A stretch of DNA of 64,000 nt from a virus. Taxonomy: Duplodnaviria; Caudoviricetes. Numbering within the stretch: the stretch's first letter is position 1; each line of letters starts with the position of its first letter. A model generated the notes under the pieces. It was given only the letters and a program-made list of their open reading frames with translations. It did no database searches and was not told the origin of the DNA. Shown here piece after piece: positions 10,487-17,221 of this stretch. Both the position numbers and the translations under genes were made by a program. The DNA is taken from the IMG/VR virus record IMGVR_UViG_3300029705_000039; one strand, written 5' to 3'.

Positions 10487-10786
10487 ATGAAGTTCTATTC
10501 GGAATTAACTAACAAACTATATGATACTGCTGATGAATGTAGTGTTGAAGAAGCAAAGTTCCGCCAGGCAAAAGAGGAAGAAGAGAAGACTTACTCTATG
10601 GCTATTGCTGATTTGGACGACATTACCGCTCTATTTAAACAGTGTCAAAAGGAACAGGAAGCAGCTTATAATAAGATGGTAGAAGTTTCTCGTGAAATGC
10701 ATAAGAAATATCGTGATTTCCAGCATAGATTTGGCCGTCTACCGGAAAAGTATTATACAAATTATATAATGTCTAAAATACTTTAA
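10487..10786 (+). CDS. hypothetical coiled-coil protein
   Basis: sigmaA promoter 10424-10452 and AAGGAG RBS. Confidence 0.7.
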   Translation: MKFYSELTNKLYDTADECSVEEAKFRQAKEEEEKTYSMAIADLDDITALFKQCQKEQEAAYNKMVEVSREMHKKYRDFQHRFGRLPEKYYTNYIMSKIL

Positions 10787-11556: not shown

Positions 11557-11647
11557 TGGGGATTGGTGTAATGGCAGCACGGCGGACTCTAAATCCGTGA
11601 GCCCCCTGAAGGCGTAAGTCAGGGTTCAAATCCCTGGTCCCCAGCCA
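11557..11647 (+). tRNA. amber-decoding tRNA (CTA), Gln-like
   Basis: GCGGA-CTCTAAA-TCCGT; U1-A72, G73, CCA; extended variable region. Confidence 0.88.
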
Positions 11648-11718: not shown

Positions 11719-11775
11719 TTTAAGTAAAAATATAAGCGCCTATATGGCGCTTTCTTTGTATAAGGAGTGATTCCC

Positions 11776-12387
11776 ATGGCTGTTTAGGGTGAAAAAATTT
11801 CATATTCTGAATTATTAAATTGGTATGAAGTATTTAATAATCTTGCTACCAATTATAGTGAAAATGTTACCGCTTTATCAATTCCTGTTTCTGGTAAAAA
11901 GGCTGAGCCTTCAGATATTAATAACCTTCATGAAAAAATTAATCAATTTCGTTCTGATACTTATCTCGGCACAAAGGCAGAATGGTTCCCTATTGGAACT
12001 GATGTAAGTAAAAATGAATATATTCGCGCTATTGACCCTACTGCTATTCTTGGCGTAGTTTCTAATGCTACTTTAGTAAAATGTCGAAATGTAGCTACTA
12101 ATACTTGTGGCGTTCATGGCAGTGGTTCTTTAAGCCACGGCAGTAAAGGGAATGGTACGTGGGGCAATACACAAAAATCTTGTGGCACAAAGTCGCATGG
12201 AGACTGGCACAATGAAGGTAATACCGATGGATGGTATTCTAGTGGTAAGAAAACGAATGGATGGTGGAGCCATAGTACCCGCAGTTGCGGAGAGCATGGT
12301 TGCGGCACTAATAATCATGCCAGCAAAGGCAACACAACTGTAATTGATATTACCTGTGTCCATTCTACAAAAGTTAATCAAGCCTAA
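11776..12387 (+). CDS. putative radical-SAM substrate with pentapeptide G/H/W/C repeats (TAG=Gln at codon 4; absent from ORF track)
   Basis: AAGGAG RBS, 203-aa open frame ending TAA 8 nt before the first rSAM gene. Confidence 0.8.
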
Positions 12388-12395
12388 GGAGTATT

Positions 12396-13772
12396 ATGGA
12401 ACATCTTTATAAAAATCTTTCTACTGTAGTTTTTTATACTTGCGGCACCTGTAATCTTAAATGCCGTTATTGTGGTATTAATAAAAATCCAATATTAAAA
12501 GATATAGATAGTGCTCTTGCCAAAAGTTTTGAAGGAGATTATTACTTTCGACGAGTAAAAGATTATTTCCCCCGTAAAGATATGCTACTTAACTTTGAAA
12601 CTTGGGGCGGCGAACCTTTTCTCCATATGGAGCGTTTATATCCAGTTTTAAAAACTCTATTGGATTATTATCCTTACTTACAAAATGGTTATTCTTCTAC
12701 CAATTTTTCTTTTGAAAATTGGAATGAAAAATTTTTTGGTTTAATGGACTGTTTTGGACAATATCCAAATCGCTTATTTAAATATTGTCTACAGCTTTCA
12801 GTAGATGGCCCTGAATATATTAACGATGCTGGCCGCGGAACAGGTGTAACTAAAAAATGCTTGGCTAATTTTAATAAATTAGTAGCGCTTTTAGCGGCGG
12901 GCCGCCTACCTAAAAATGTAGACCTAACCATTACCCTAAAGGGAACTTTAGATAATGACACTATTAAACAACTTTGTCAAAAAGATAAGATTATAGAGTA
13001 TTTTCAATTTTATGAAAATAATTTTATAAATCCTATCAAACAACTAAATTTATCTAATGTTGATATCATTCCCACAATTCCTAATACTGCGGTCCCTTCT
13101 CCTGTTACTAAAGAAGATGGAAAAATCTTTGCTAAACTAGTTAAGCTTTGTCGCGAAATCGAAGAAGAGAATAAGACTTGTAATTATTTTAATTATTATA
13201 ATATAATTACACCTTATTATAGTAATATCTGCCAAAATTGTTTAACCTACAAATATGGTTGGCATACTTGCGGCACAGGAGATAGCGTTATCGGTTTATT
13301 ACCTGATAATATGGTTTCTACCTGCCATGAGGGTTTTACCCAAATTGTAGAAGAATATCAAAAATTAGCGGCACAAGATAAGAATCTTAATTCTACGATT
13401 ACTTTCGATAAATTTAGAGATGAACAAGCGATTAGTTTATGCGTCGATGACGAAGGATTTTATGAACATCACTATAAAATGTCTTTATATCAACACGATG
13501 ATGCCACAGCACGTGTCGCAACTAGTGCTAGTTTAATTGTAGCATTAGCTCTTGCCAAACAAATTGATGAATGCTATATTAATCAGACTAACGCTTTAAA
13601 GGCCGCGATTTTTATTCAAAGTCATACTTCTTATTGTATTAAAGACAACTACAATAAGACTGGTTCTTACACTCTACCGCCCGTAGGTTTATATAAATTA
13701 TTACTTAACGGTGCGATGGAATACATACAAGGAGAAGGAGAACTAAAAGTTAATGATGTTAGAAAAGACTAA
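12396..13772 (+). CDS. radical SAM protein 1 (SPASM/twitch-like)
   Basis: CNLKCRYC, WGGEP, SVDGP, CGTG...TCH. Confidence 0.9.
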   Translation: MEHLYKNLSTVVFYTCGTCNLKCRYCGINKNPILKDIDSALAKSFEGDYYFRRVKDYFPRKDMLLNFETWGGEPFLHMERLYPVLKTLLDYYPYLQNGYSSTNFSFENWNEKFFGLMDCFGQYPNRLFKYCLQLSVDGPEYINDAGRGTGVTKKCLANFNKLVALLAAGRLPKNVDLTITLKGTLDNDTIKQLCQKDKIIEYFQFYENNFINPIKQLNLSNVDIIPTIPNTAVPSPVTKEDGKIFAKLVKLCREIEEENKTCNYFNYYNIITPYYSNICQNCLTYKYGWHTCGTGDSVIGLLPDNMVSTCHEGFTQIVEEYQKLAAQDKNLNSTITFDKFRDEQAISLCVDDEGFYEHHYKMSLYQHDDATARVATSASLIVALALAKQIDECYINQTNALKAAIFIQSHTSYCIKDNYNKTGSYTLPPVGLYKLLLNGAMEYIQGEGELKVNDVRKD

Positions 13773-15165
13773 AAATATATTTCAAAAGGAGCAAGATGCT
13801 CTTTTACAAACTGTCTTGGGGCTAAGATTCTTAGACCCCTGGACAGATAAAGAATATGATGATTTCTCATTGGTAGCAGATGCTAACCTAGAAATCTTTA
13901 TTACTAGCGCTTGTAATCAAAAATGCGAATATTGCTATCTAATTAAACATAAAGATTTATATCCGCAAGAATTTCGAGATAAAAGTTTAATATTAGATAA
14001 TTTAAGAAAATTATATGATTGGATTTATGATAATAATTATCATATCCCTCTTTGTACTTTTTTCTCTGGTGAAATTTGGCATATCAATTTTGGTTTGGAA
14101 GTATTAGATATTACTTTAGAATATTTAAAGAAGGGAATTAATATCGATAGATTTATGATTCCTTCTAATTGTTCTTTTGTCTTAGATGAATCTCAACTAG
14201 AAAAAATTCAAACCTATATTGATCTATTTGATAAATATGGATATCCTCTACAATTTTCTATTTCAGTAGATGGCGCTATTTTAGAATCTGAAACGAGACC
14301 ATTAAATAATGGAATTGCCAAAACAGAAGATTATTATGATAGATTATTTCTATTTGCTAAACATAATAATTATTATTTTCATCCAATGGTCAGCGCCTTT
14401 AGCGTGGAAAAGTGGATAGAAAATTACAAATGGTGGGAAAAACAATTTAACAAATGGGATATGAATATTTCAGCCTTAATGATGTTAGAGGTTAGAAATG
14501 ATGATTGGACAGAAGAAAAAATCACCGCTTATACATCCTTTCTTAATTTTTTAATTGATAAATATTTTGAAGAAGAATGTGGAAAAAATGTAGAAGTGTT
14601 TTCTAATCGTCTAATGAATATTCGCAATTATATTCCACAAAAAATTCATCCTGCCGAATTAGCCGGTTATACTCCTTGGGCATTACCAGAAACTGACAGT
14701 TTTATTGGTTGTACCTGCGCTAATGAACTAACTGTACGGCTTGGCGATTTGGCAATTATACCTTGCCATAGATTGGGATATAATAAATATAAATATGGCA
14801 ACTTTACATTAAAAAATAATCATATTGACACAATTGAAGCAAATAATCCTCAAATGGCAGTTAAAATCTTAATGAGCAACTTTAATCTTGCTAGTTTTGG
14901 TTGCGATACTTGTTTATTTAATCATTATTGCCTTAAAGGGTGCTATGGTAGCCAATATGAAAATATGGGCGATCCATTTATTCCTGTTCCGAATATTTGT
15001 AACTTCTTTAAAAAGAAATATAGTTTTCTTTTACAAAAGTATAAGGATATGGGAGTATTTGATTATTACAAAACTATTGCACCGCAGGAATTAGAATATC
15101 CGCGTATTAAGAAATTATTAGACCTTTTTGAAGAGTGGGAGGTTTCGCCGCTATGCAATGGATAA
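13753..15165 (+). CDS. radical SAM/SPASM protein 2
   Basis: CNQKCEYC, SISVDG, GC...PCHR...CDTC...C..GC...C. Confidence 0.9.
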   Translation: MMLEKTKNIFQKEQDALLQTVLGLRFLDPWTDKEYDDFSLVADANLEIFITSACNQKCEYCYLIKHKDLYPQEFRDKSLILDNLRKLYDWIYDNNYHIPLCTFFSGEIWHINFGLEVLDITLEYLKKGINIDRFMIPSNCSFVLDESQLEKIQTYIDLFDKYGYPLQFSISVDGAILESETRPLNNGIAKTEDYYDRLFLFAKHNNYYFHPMVSAFSVEKWIENYKWWEKQFNKWDMNISALMMLEVRNDDWTEEKITAYTSFLNFLIDKYFEEECGKNVEVFSNRLMNIRNYIPQKIHPAELAGYTPWALPETDSFIGCTCANELTVRLGDLAIIPCHRLGYNKYKYGNFTLKNNHIDTIEANNPQMAVKILMSNFNLASFGCDTCLFNHYCLKGCYGSQYENMGDPFIPVPNICNFFKKKYSFLLQKYKDMGVFDYYKTIAPQELEYPRIKKLLDLFEEWEVSPLCNG

Positions 15166-15497
15166 ACGGTATGAAAATGTTCCCTTATGGGCGAACTCCA
15201 GTACAAAATATTACTCTAGAACAATTAGAGAATGATAATATAGAAGAAATTAATATGTATCTCTTGAAAATGGCGCGCCAAATGATTATTTATTAGGAAT
15301 TAGTTAGTTGGAAAGCTGATGGAACTCGCTCTAATAAGTATGCTTACAATATTTTCCCTGATGATTTGCCTGATAATGTATCTTGTTTAAGTGCTTATGG
15401 TCAAAAGATGGTTAATGATTGGTATTCTAGAAATAAATACCATGGCGATAAAGGAGTAAAGCAGACAGATGTTGGATTTAATTATACCGGTATATAA
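15153..15497 (+). CDS. hypothetical protein (1 TAG=Gln)
   Basis: GGAGG RBS; 114-aa frame filling the gap between rSAM2 and GT2. Confidence 0.6.
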
Positions 15498-16479
15498 TAA
15501 TTTGGAAGGGTTGTATAGAACTTTGTTATCTATTGGTGCGGAAACTAAGCAAAAAGTTTACGTGACTATTGTAGATGATGCCTCAGATATTAACTATGAT
15601 GAAGTGATTCCGCTATTCCAAAAACTTTTCCCTATTCGTATTCTAAAATTAAGTGAAAATATGGGTCCTGGTGTGGCAAGACAGCAAGGCATACGAGAGA
15701 CTAATAACCCATATTTTTCTTTTATTGATTGCGGCGATACATTTTATTCTCCTTTAATATTGCCTACGATGTTAGAAGCAATAGAAAAGCATCCTCAAGC
15801 AATGATGTTTTCTTGGGCTCATATAGAAGAGAATAGCGATGGAAGTTTGGATATGGTTAATTCTTATCATAATCGCATTCATGGTAAAATTTATAATAGG
15901 GAGTTTATAAATAAACATAATATTACTTTTTCTCAATTATCCCCGTATGCAAACGAAGACATCGGCTTTAATCTTGCGTGTCGTATGATATTAAAATCTT
16001 TATATCCTGAAACAGCATTGTATTCTAATGAAGATGCGGCAGTTGTATGGAAATGGAGCGGTCCTTCTATTGTTCGTGCGAATGACTGTGAATTCTATTA
16101 TAGAAAACAACATTTAGGATTGGCTTTGAACAGTTTACACGCGATTAATATAGCAAAAGAAAATAATGTATTAGAGCGTATAATTATAGAAGAAATATAT
16201 ACAACAATGATATATTTATATATGTTCTATTTACAAACTTTATATGTAAGGCCGCAATTTAAAGATGAGGCTTATATGGGTTGCAAATATTATTATTCAA
16301 AAATTTTTAGAGAATATGGGATAAAAAACCCATCTTTATTTAGAGATTATTACTATAAAGTGCTACTTTCTTTCCTCTCCGATGAAGATGACCCAATGCT
16401 ACAATCTCTTGTAAGTTTTGATGTTCTTAAATTCTTACAAGAATTGGAGGAAAATACGCATGAGGGACTTAAAAATTAA
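15469..16479 (+). CDS. glycosyltransferase family 2
   Basis: IIPVYN, VDDAS, GPGVARQ.G, FIDCGD, NED. Confidence 0.9.
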   Translation: MLDLIIPVYNNLEGLYRTLLSIGAETKQKVYVTIVDDASDINYDEVIPLFQKLFPIRILKLSENMGPGVARQQGIRETNNPYFSFIDCGDTFYSPLILPTMLEAIEKHPQAMMFSWAHIEENSDGSLDMVNSYHNRIHGKIYNREFINKHNITFSQLSPYANEDIGFNLACRMILKSLYPETALYSNEDAAVVWKWSGPSIVRANDCEFYYRKQHLGLALNSLHAINIAKENNVLERIIIEEIYTTMIYLYMFYLQTLYVRPQFKDEAYMGCKYYYSKIFREYGIKNPSLFRDYYYKVLLSFLSDEDDPMLQSLVSFDVLKFLQELEENTHEGLKN

Positions 16480-17221
16480 ATAGGGCTTTGTAACCTTATT
16501 ATCTTCTGAAAATTATATAGAAGCGGTTTTAATTCTGAATGCCAGCCTAAAAGCAGTGCAATCTAAATATCCCTTAATAGTTGCCTGTACTCCTTCTGTA
16601 ATAAAAAATGAACGCATTATTGCGGCTCTGCTAGCAGAAAATTGTATAGTAGAGCCAATAGCACCATTACGTTTTCCAGAAGGTTTAGAACATCTTCTAC
16701 AAAAAGATTATCCTAATTTGCCAAATCTTTTAAATACCGGCGCGAAATTAGAAGTATTTTCTTTGAAACATTATGATAAACTCGTCTTTATCGACGCAGA
16801 TGGATTTTTGGTAAAAAATATAGATTTTTTATTTAATAAAAAAGATGGCTCTTCTACTATTCAAAAAGACGAGCGCGATGAAATTAGTAGTAATTGTAGT
16901 GTTTTTGTTTTTTGCCCTCGTAATCATAATATAAATTTTTATCGAGGCCTAGTATTTAAAATGGGGCACAATGATGGCGCAGTTTTTGAAAGTATGTGGT
17001 TTTAGGTTAAAGACAATGAAGATTATAGAATAAAAGATAATATCTATTATCTTCCTTTTGATGAAAATATACATACTGAAGTCTATGGTTATCATTTATG
17101 GAAACCGCATTTAAAATATTGGTTATTAAAAGATATGCCTAATACAGATTTAGCTAATTTGTATAAAAACTTTTTAATACCAATTAGAGCCAAATATAAA
17201 TTTGACTTTTCTCAAAAATAA
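16460..17221 (+). CDS. glycosyltransferase family 8 (2 TAG=Gln)
   Basis: FVTLLSSENY..., KLEVF.L..YDKLVFIDAD, H...KYW; 253 aa with read-through. Confidence 0.8.

Follow-up and report, generated by a model that had tools for sequence, protein, structure and literature searches.

A pentad-repeat protein hidden by stop-codon recoding in a phage is the probable substrate of two adjacent, divergent radical SAM enzymes

The DNA analyzed here (hereafter the window) is a stretch of 64,000 nucleotides from IMG/VR virus record IMGVR_UViG_3300029705_000039 (Duplodnaviria; Caudoviricetes). The phage is large and has TAG recoded to an amino acid; the window carries 24 tRNA genes. Directly upstream of two radical S-adenosylmethionine (SAM) enzymes, the window encodes a 203-residue protein, designated P0001, whose fast-evolving middle part is an array of five-residue repeats. 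We conclude that this repeat core belongs to a phage protein that probably serves as the dedicated substrate of a radical SAM maturation cassette, that is, a "protein-sized RiPP" (a ribosomally made peptide that is modified after translation). The analysis shows the gene and its family, its periodicity and synteny, and the folds of the enzymes; we infer the modification of P0001 by the enzymes, and its site. The parts of the gene are as follows.

11776..12387, + strand: gene of P0001, 203 residues, with an ATG start, TAG at codon 4, and a TAA stop; AGGAG at 11763-11767
11776..12105, + strand: N-terminal leader-like helical domain, residues 1-110, ending in V-K-C-R-N (Cys103, Asn105), delimited by the AlphaFold2 model and motif statistics
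12106..12345, + strand: 16 in-register pentads, residues 111-190, forming the hypervariable core and putative modification target
12331..12384, + strand: conserved C-terminal frame, residues 186-203, with the motif T-V-I-D-I-T-C, delimited by the motif table and AlphaFold2 strands and 100% identical to that of the relative P0002

An earlier note, made from the DNA letters alone, had pointed out a five-residue periodicity at 12106-12345. This was confirmed, as residues 111-190 form 16 pentads without any insertion or deletion. All 16 units have C, H, N, S, or D at position 1; Gly occupies position 2 in 11/16, and Gly or Ser occupies position 5 in 11/16. When the 80 core residues were shuffled 20,000 times, no shuffle gathered Gly in a single phase of period 5 as strongly as the core does (0/20,000), and the lag-5 autocorrelation of Gly was reached by 0.2% of the shuffles. 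The top autocorrelation of the core lies at 15 residues, with an H/C-G-S/T-K/R-G/S unit at every third pentad, and the conserved C-terminal motif carries on this super-period in register. No tandem repeat was detectable at the DNA level in 12050-12400; therefore, the periodicity of P0001 is held at the protein level. The core is mildly basic and contains five Trp and one Tyr, with an aromatic residue in 5/16 units; seven His and four H-x-S triplets are present in P0001.

The gene is hidden under the standard code because its fourth codon is TAG and no in-frame ATG, GTG, or TTG follows; accordingly, the standard-code list of open reading frames holds no gene over 12106-12345. The protein sequence was obtained by translating frame 1 of the + strand with TAG read as Gln. 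Apart from codon 4, the frame contains no stop before the TAA at 12385-12387, and the AGGAG ribosome-binding site is located eight bases 5' of the ATG at 11776. The case shows how stop-codon recoding hides genes, since the standard code calls no P0001 gene at all.

Relatives of P0001 were collected by a profile search over 1.84 billion representatives, and all came from metagenome protein collections. The family consists of 149 clusters at E ≤ 1e-3 (100 at E ≤ 1e-10), which establishes the hidden frame proposed in the earlier note as a real gene. A word-indexed search with P0001 found three relatives only. The INPHARED phage genomes gave no match by tblastn with P0001 or by blastn with both enzyme genes, a pattern scan of IMG/VR with P0001 gave no confirmed relative, and Pfam, NCBIfam, and PHROG hold no family that covers these proteins. 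The family is metagenomic and apparently restricted to phages.

Full-length members are tripartite, with an N-terminal domain, a hypervariable core, and a C-terminal motif. The N-terminal domain (N-domain) of approximately 100-105 residues ends with (V/I)-K-C-R-N and is followed by A-T-N-S-x-G. Among the 113 motif-bearing members, the Cys of KCRN is present in all and the Asn in 112. At the other end, the motif T-x-(I/V)-D-(I/L)-x-(C/N) has Asp in 68/79 members, and its last position is Cys in 37 and Asn in 42. No longer, fused form of the N-domain turned up when one was searched for, which is weak evidence. The cores between these two frames are 53-287 residues long and are composed mainly of Asn (16%), Ser (15%), Gly (13%), and Thr (12%), with smaller amounts of Cys (7%), His (4.6%), Tyr (4.6%), and Trp (1.5%); the medians of Ile, Leu, and Met are below 1%. 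Only Gly, Asn, Ser, and Thr occur in every one of the 78 cores compared. Trp is absent from 23/78 and occurs at most once in 46/78, His is absent from 7/78, and the core of member P0091 has no aromatic residue whatever. Two cores (P0049 and P0277) are devoid of Cys, and the locus of P0277 (L008) nevertheless has both radical SAM enzymes. Enrichment of N-glycosylation sequons in the cores was considered and rejected, as their density (4.2 per 100 residues) is about that expected from composition (approximately 4.3, a rough estimate).

Neither of the two outcomes that the earlier note named as refuting its reading, an untranslated frame or a periodicity not shared by homologues, was encountered. 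The periodicity is conserved in most homologues: the strongest autocorrelation is at period 5, 10, or 15 in 75/98 members, at 9 in 11, at 8 in four, and at 4 in three. A family-wide logo was built from 582 Gly-anchored pentads, in which position 2 is G by anchoring. Position 1 is N (41%), H (14%), S (12%), or C (9%); position 3 is T (32%), S (15%), or N (14%); position 4 is N (30%), C (15%), H (12%), or K (12%); and position 5 is S (41%), G (16%), or T (11%). The resulting consensus is (N/H/S/C)-G-(T/S/N)-(N/C/H/K)-(S/G/T). The units of P0001 match this consensus, and its unbroken register of 16 units is a property of P0001 itself.

The core evolves differently from its frames. P0001 and P0002, which are 86% identical overall, agree at 94% of positions in the N-domain and at 71% in the core, and their last 18 residues are the same (100%). 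Judged from sequence, conserved frames around a divergent core are the leader/core pattern typical of RiPPs. Two loci of approximately 195 kb each from different samples (L010 and L011) have identical rSAM-A enzymes (see below) and precursors of 221 and 226 residues (L010:8324-8989 and L011:8309-8989), which contain perfect 15-nt DNA repeats and differ by exactly one CGTNS unit (15 nt). This is live variation in repeat number, and gain and loss therefore proceed pentad by pentad; the check on repeat number proposed in the earlier note thus came out as variation by whole pentads. The idea that the core is register-locked between its frames was rejected, as core length modulo 5 is uniform (p = 0.53); phase shifts are therefore tolerated across the family.

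The genes that follow P0001 form a compact cassette on the same strand.

12396..13772, + strand: rSAM-A, 458 residues, CxxxCxxC at residues 19-26 and a GGE motif; its ribosome-binding site overlaps the P0001 stop codon
13753..15165, + strand: rSAM-B, 470 residues, CxxxCxxC at residues 54-61 and seven SPASM-pattern Cys; 20-nt overlap with rSAM-A
15153..15497, + strand: small conserved partner protein, 114 residues, one TAG; overlaps rSAM-B and the next gene, and was aligned with the gene at the same position in five other loci
15469..16479, + strand: family-2 glycosyltransferase (GT2), 336 residues (PF00535, E 6e-18)
16421..17221, + strand: GT8-like glycosyltransferase, about 254-267 residues, two TAG, start ATG at 16421 or 16460 (PF01501, E 6e-4, below the Pfam cutoff)

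The abutting and overlapping genes suggest translational coupling. TAG codons are present in the precursor, the small protein, and the GT8-like gene, and there are none in rSAM-A, rSAM-B, and GT2. The small protein has no match in Pfam or NCBIfam. Nine loci were compared: the window, four loci fetched through their precursors (L001, L004, L005, and L006), and four fetched through rSAM-A (L008, L010, L011, and L012). In 9/9 loci, a family member stands directly before rSAM-A. The synteny is bidirectional, because the precursor-fetched loci have rSAM-A downstream, and the rSAM-A-fetched loci have a family member upstream. Wherever the contig runs on, rSAM-B and then the small protein follow 3' of rSAM-A. 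Given this strictly conserved synteny, the repeat protein is the likely substrate of the two downstream radical SAM enzymes. The arrangement also matches what is expected of a RiPP-like precursor, namely adjacency to the maturase, a conserved leader, and a hypervariable core.

Other cassette parts are optional. One or two YcaO genes lie 5' of the precursor in L001, L004, L005, and L012; the two in L005 (L005:53-3605) are in tandem and encode 593 and 592 residues. These YcaO proteins score best against the stand-alone Escherichia coli type, an accessory factor for RimO on ribosomal protein S12, and not against the SagD-type cyclodehydratases. In the few loci compared, YcaO seems to accompany Cys-rich cores. 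The window has tRNA genes in place of the relatives' YcaO genes and no YcaO beside the cassette. L010/L011 and L012 share with the window a GT2 gene at the corresponding place. When 185,579 species genomes were scanned with rSAM-A, the sole close match was L012, and the system therefore looks phage-restricted. L012 is a 35-kb contig binned with a Faecalibacterium metagenome-assembled genome and contains the whole cassette; it is the only lead to a host.

rSAM-A has more than 400 homologues, all metagenomic and on contigs of up to 361 kb, and the best 120 of them are 52-74% identical. The invariant residues are C19, C23, C26, W70-G-G-E-P74, Cys155, Cys292, Cys310, and Cys414. The AlphaFold2 model of rSAM-A has a pLDDT (predicted local distance difference test) of 87.6. 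In a Foldseek search, it matched CteB (5wgg, E 1e-8) and anSME (4k37, E 4e-8), followed by SuiB, ChlB, SkfB, PqqE, and EpeE. As modeled, rSAM-A has the fold of a peptide or protein maturase, and it probably carries one auxiliary cluster. In rSAM-B, the Cys residues that are invariant among six orthologues are C54, C58, and C61, and C320, C338, C384, C387, C393, C397, and C416, including a Cx2Cx5Cx3C motif. The score against the SPASM domain profile TIGR04085 is 22.3 bits, just under the cutoff of 27, and the cysteine pattern places rSAM-B in the three-cluster SPASM type. Among the profiles, it comes closest, though weakly, to QhpD, the Nif11 maturase, and PapB.

No named maturase family gives either enzyme more than 31-36 bits. 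For calibration, L059 from Trabulsiella, which is an ordinary anaerobic sulfatase maturase, scores 60-480 bits against dozens of named families. On these profile scores, rSAM-A and rSAM-B stand as two new, deeply divergent maturase families. Compared by sequence with solved structures, both enzymes drew no meaningful match, and no paralogy between the two was detectable beyond the cluster motif. rSAM-A scores 17.8 bits against YhhB (cutoff 445) and 16.8 bits against the CXXX-repeat maturase TIGR04115 (cutoff 350). The corresponding scores of rSAM-B are 19.2 bits against HxsB TIGR03978 (cutoff 370), 16.3 against YhhB, 14.1 against AmcB (425), 13.6 against GrrM (310), and 11.9 against FxsB (370). 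Neither enzyme matches HxsC TIGR03977 or CefB NF038107 at E ≤ 0.1, and there was also no match to TIGR04463 at this threshold.

The structure of P0001 was modeled with AlphaFold2 using 88 family sequences. Residues 11-100 form four helices with a block-mean pLDDT of 93-98, so the nonrepetitive, leader-like part of approximately 100 residues described in the earlier note is real. The strands 105-109 and 187-191 are paired with a pLDDT of about 70-80, and the core is therefore predicted to be closed into a loop. Residues 112-185 are mostly at pLDDT <50 and have no strands. The fold of the N-domain has no convincing relative: the best Foldseek match in the PDB has an E of 0.44, the best matches in BFVD are uncharacterized phage proteins (E 5e-3 to 1e-2), and a wide VIA-align search gave helical proteins at noise level (best Z 6.3). 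A look-up in the ESM Atlas returned only viral clusters without names. One sub-threshold lead (0.83) in it is a viral cluster in which 25% carry the Pfam "rSAM target Cxxx repeat" family.

In the mechanism we propose, the folded N-domain of approximately 105 residues ending in KCRN is the probable recognition handle for the enzymes. The hydrophilic pentad core would be presented as a loop, closed by the predicted pairing between the strand immediately behind KCRN and that of the C-terminal IDI-x-(C/N) motif. The conserved machinery consists of the small partner protein and two highly divergent radical SAM enzymes, and the two glycosyltransferases of the window and the YcaO proteins of its relatives may provide optional tailoring steps. 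The core evolves fast, with point changes as well as whole pentads gained or lost, against a background of conserved frames and enzymes. Because nothing else is found in every member, conserved chemistry would have to act on Gly, Asn, Ser, Thr, the backbone, or the frame residues Cys103, Asn105, and Asp191. The cores without Trp or any aromatic residue and those without Cys imply that the conserved reaction is neither an aromatic cyclophane nor a thioether of core Cys. One candidate is backbone epimerization, EpeE being among the fold matches of rSAM-A; another is oxidation of Ser or Cys as catalyzed by anSME, also a fold match of rSAM-A. A PapB- or QhpD-like thioether might join Cys103 to Asp191 over the predicted hairpin. 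Asn-x-x-Cys thioethers may be added as a substrate-dependent extra in Cys-rich members, which have many N-G-T-C-S units. As putative tailoring, YcaO might form azoles or thioamides in the loci that have it, and the GT2 and GT8-like enzymes of the window might glycosylate Asn, Ser, Thr, or Cys.

Several points weigh against P0001 being such a substrate. The case for modification is built wholly on gene order and folds. As the scores of the enzymes against named families do not exceed 31-36 bits, their chemistry is not transferable by homology. No RiPP recognition element (RRE) or PqqD-like domain, leader protease, or exporter was detected in the cassette when the enzymes and the small protein were searched against Pfam and NCBIfam. 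The repeats are modeled at pLDDT <50, and the model is hence uninformative on their structure. In addition, a strict enzyme register over the whole core is not a feature of the family, as shown by the core lengths modulo 5 (p = 0.53).

The closest biochemical precedent is the CrpA/CrpC pair of Methanococcus voltae, although the resemblance is an analogy of design. CrpC is a SPASM radical SAM enzyme that contains an RRE and installs ranthionine thioethers on the repeat protein CrpA; the N-terminal domain of CrpA aids engagement of the enzyme, and its Cys-rich, 17-residue repeats carry C-x-x-Q/D motifs (Dieter et al. 2026, PMC13692751). P0001 shares with CrpA the size of a protein, a structured N-terminal domain, a long C-terminal array of short repeats, and an adjacent SPASM maturase. 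It differs in that two cores of its family are Cys-less, no RRE was detected, two enzymes are present against one in Crp, and TIGR04463 is not matched. Short periodic repeats are also encoded beside radical SAM/SPASM maturases in three computationally defined NCBIfam systems, CefA/CefB (NF038108/NF038107), the CXXX-repeat system (TIGR04115), and GrrA/GrrM (TIGR04261). CefA has the same period of five, and CXXX runs occur in some Cys-rich members of the P0001 family. However, only 1/88 members touches CefA (E 0.08), Cys is found at position 1 in only 9% of the pentads, and the folded N-domain of 105 residues together with the C-terminal frame distinguishes the P0001 family from all three systems. 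Proteusin RiPPs (NHLP/Nif11 leaders, PoyD-like epimerases) and thiazole/oxazole-modified microcins (TOMMs) such as microcin B17 resemble P0001 in their unusually long, structured leaders and hydrophilic cores rich in Asn, Gly, Ser, Thr, and Cys, in the location of hypervariable cores beside conserved enzymes, and in the YcaO genes found in many relatives. Nevertheless, the N-domain matches neither NHLP nor Nif11 and has no convincing fold relative. The YcaO proteins of the relatives score best as the stand-alone rather than the SagD type, and none lies beside the cassette of the window. The classical pentapeptide-repeat proteins, with A(D/N)LXX repeats in a quadrilateral β-helix, share the five-residue periodicity with P0001. 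They differ from it in their center hydrophobic residue and β-helix, neither of which is seen or predicted here, and neither P0001 nor any of the 88 members has a Pfam match to them.

The specific chemistry and structure suggested in the earlier note fared less well than the substrate role. XyeB-, GrrM-, and FxsB-type SPASM radical SAM enzymes act on repeated motifs. The five Trp and one Tyr of the P0001 core, together with weak N-terminal matches of the enzymes to YhhB, AmcB, GrrM, and FxsB, would fit enzymes that form three-residue cyclophanes by bridging aromatic-x-small triplets (WGN, WHN, WYS, and WWS) in the pentads. We consider this very improbable. With 12-18 bits, the matches are far below the cutoffs of 310-445, and most of their span is the cluster-binding motif. 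Trp is missing from 23/78 cores, P0091 has no aromatics, and only 5/16 units of P0001 contain an aromatic residue. The 52-74% identity of rSAM-A over diverse substrates argues for a common chemistry without aromatics; being highly conserved beside cores that lack them, rSAM-A cannot depend on aromatic residues. The repeats might instead fold by themselves into a solenoid with 15 residues per turn or a β-spiral, with ladders of Asn, His, and Cys and possibly bound metal, and P0001 would then be a structural or virion protein that the enzymes at most staple. Asn-Gly turns and Asn ladders are typical of solenoids, and the 15-residue super-period of P0001 has an H/C/D/H/H column and a C-terminal motif in register. 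The cassettes of relatives often lie next to tail-fiber-like or adhesin genes (Mtd_N, CBM_5_12, and LRR_5) and a lysin, and the repeats of CrpA were modeled as a β-helix, at low confidence (PMC13692751). We regard self-folding repeats as improbable, because residues 112-185 are without strands at pLDDT <50 in a model based on 88 sequences, core-filling hydrophobic residues are nearly absent (Ile, Leu, and Met medians <1%), no Pfam repeat family was matched, and single-pentad insertions and deletions without a length preference modulo 5 fit a flexible loop better. The metal-binding β-solenoid, which the earlier note had offered as the alternative, thus finds no support in the AlphaFold2 model, and position 1 of the pentads is family-wide mostly Asn, which is not a metal ligand. 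Of its proposal that the hidden protein is a substrate of the radical SAM enzymes, the substrate role is likely in view of the conserved synteny and folds, whereas the cyclophane and solenoid specifics found no support.

Two further explanations keep the enzymes or the architecture and assign them another role. The enzymes may act on the conserved frames only, for example by linking Cys103 as a thioether to the Asp or the Cys/Asn of IDI-x-(C/N), which would close the hairpin covalently and leave the core as an unmodified, hypervariable loop on display, with a diversified binding surface. SPASM enzymes such as PapB and QhpD make Cys-to-Asp or Cys-to-Glu thioethers, and these two are among the best, though weak, matches of rSAM-B. 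Cys103, Asn105, and Asp191 are the sole invariant or nearly invariant side chains outside the N-domain, the AlphaFold2 model pairs strands 105-109 and 187-191, and both enzymes are retained at L008, the locus of P0277, which is one of the two members (with P0049) whose cores have no Cys. We rate this explanation as unlikely, and yet the strongest of those competing with modification of the core; it does not explain why the pentad periodicity is kept without DNA repeats, why two enzymes are needed, or why enzymes with a need for Cys, Ser, Thr, or Asn (YcaO and the glycosyltransferases) join the cassette. The other explanation starts from the HXS anti-phage system of bacteria (99.7% in Pseudomonadota), in which HxsA with five HxS repeats is matured by the radical SAM enzymes HxsB and HxsC and by the small HxsD, which binds HxsC; it is a precedent for the maturation of a repeat protein by radical SAM enzymes (Li et al., Nat Commun 2026, PMC13128918). 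HXS is the closest known system to the phage cassette, by analogy and in architecture only. Both consist of four like parts: a repeat protein of approximately 200 residues in place of a short peptide, two radical SAM enzymes encoded next to it that have it (here probably) as their dedicated substrate, and a small partner (PMC13128918). P0001 also has seven His, four His-x-Ser triplets, and a mildly basic core, and one of the 88 members matches the HxsA4 profile (E 2.5e-5). The cassette might thus be a phage-borne counterpart of HXS, in which the matured repeat protein blocks the DNA entry of competing phages (superinfection exclusion). The chance of this appears to us somewhat smaller than that of frame-only modification. 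The enzymes miss the HxsB and HxsC profiles, with 19 bits for rSAM-B against HxsB (cutoff 370) and no match of rSAM-A to HxsC at E ≤ 0.1. P0001 has no Pfam match, hence no detected peptidoglycan-binding domain, and its N-terminus is, by eye, not signal-peptide-like. The pentads of the family are rich in Asn, Gly, Ser, and Thr in place of five HxS units; in the family cores, the density of H-x-S is 0.5 per 100 residues, and 7/78 lack His. The gene order is also reversed (HxsD-B-C-A against A-rSAM-rSAM-small), the system is phage-borne here, and glycosyltransferases and YcaO can join it.

Returning to P0001 as a dedicated maturation substrate, we tentatively extend this reading to function, as a possibility that we hold to be distinctly less probable than the substrate role itself. 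Large TAG-recoded gut and rumen phages may have a maturation system of their own, in which two phage-specific radical SAM enzymes and a small partner turn a hypervariable pentad protein with a new fold and a loop-closing clamp into an effector through a modification unlike the known radical SAM peptide crosslinks. Phage-phage or phage-host conflict would be the setting in which the product acts, or else it would be a diversifiable binding module. The modification might act on the Asn, Gly, Ser, or Thr of the pentads or might be a staple from Cys103 to the C-terminal frame. By analogy, an HXS-like exclusion of incoming DNA would be one example of a use in conflict. If this extended reading is true, the product would be the first virus-encoded protein effector matured by radical SAM enzymes. 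That such enzymes mature whole proteins, as distinct from short peptides, is a very recent finding in bacteria (HXS, 2026) and archaea (Crp, 2026), to which the cassette would add viruses. Searches of the literature turned up no account of such a system (radical SAM, YcaO, or RiPP) in phages. The family is a large natural library, with no fewer than 149 clusters of precursors and over 400 variants of the enzyme, in which the pentad grammar is kept while almost every residue changes. Being so remote from the named families, the enzymes make the system a tractable starting point in the search for new peptide chemistry and for a novel type of phage effector.

The cassette lies in a late-gene neighborhood of lysis and tail-fiber-like genes. 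In the window, it is located after a lysin-like gene and among tRNA genes; a frame of 485 residues with seven in-frame TAG at 8668-10125 matches the PHROG amidase family (lysis category). In relatives, the cassette follows genes for tail-fiber-like or adhesin proteins (Mtd_N, CBM_5_12, and LRR_5), and L008 has a SpoIID/NlpC-P60/SH3_3 lysin nearby. A conflict or exclusion effector analogous to HXS, a virion or surface component, and a product released at lysis are all possible. Many long frames of the window are open only when TAG is read as Gln, and a DNA polymerase of 1323 residues is encoded. A frame of 333 residues with 15 TAG at 59032-60033 matches GIY-YIG-type homing endonucleases over its C-terminal 90 residues (PHROG 314, E 9e-22).

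Two elements precede the P0001 gene.

11557..11647, + strand: amber-suppressor tRNA, anticodon CTA, 91 nt, with a long extra arm; found by ARAGORN and aligned with the other long-arm tRNAs of the window
11734..11752, + strand: terminator-like GC hairpin and T-run, a pattern match only from a consensus scan, between the tRNA/noncoding RNA block and the P0001 ribosome-binding site

The tRNA with the CTA anticodon lies directly upstream of the P0001 gene. In the span given by ARAGORN, it has a G before CCA, and its first pair would be U-A, which is odd for a Gln tRNA. The hairpin has a perfect, GC-rich stem of 7 bp and, with its T-run, lies 11 nt before the ribosome-binding site of P0001. It may mark the end of the upstream transcript of tRNA and noncoding RNA, in which case the cassette would need its own promoter or read-through. 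A conserved role of the near-start TAG as a translational gate was considered and rejected, as TAG is found at codons 3-5 in 4/8 loci and is absent there in L004, L005, L006, and L008.

Some minor features were noted around the cassettes. In L012, rSAM-B is 823 residues long (L012:7358-9829) and contains an intein with a homing-endonuclease-like insert directly after CxxxCxxC; the flanks rejoin to a normal rSAM-B. Such a site within a cluster motif is typical of conserved, important genes. The 102-kb relative L001 has a third radical SAM/SPASM-like gene downstream of the cassette (L001:14171-16477; 768 residues with TAG read as Gln), which has Pfam matches to intein-splicing and LAGLIDADG domains. 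A small, charged, coiled-coil-like protein of 99-113 residues is encoded 5' of the cassette in both the window (10487-10786) and L001 (L001:7345-7686), and the two are alike by eye. Past this gene come, in L001, a gene of 117 residues and a YcaO gene and, in the window, the tRNA-Ser and tRNA-Leu genes, the suppressor tRNA, and small RNAs.

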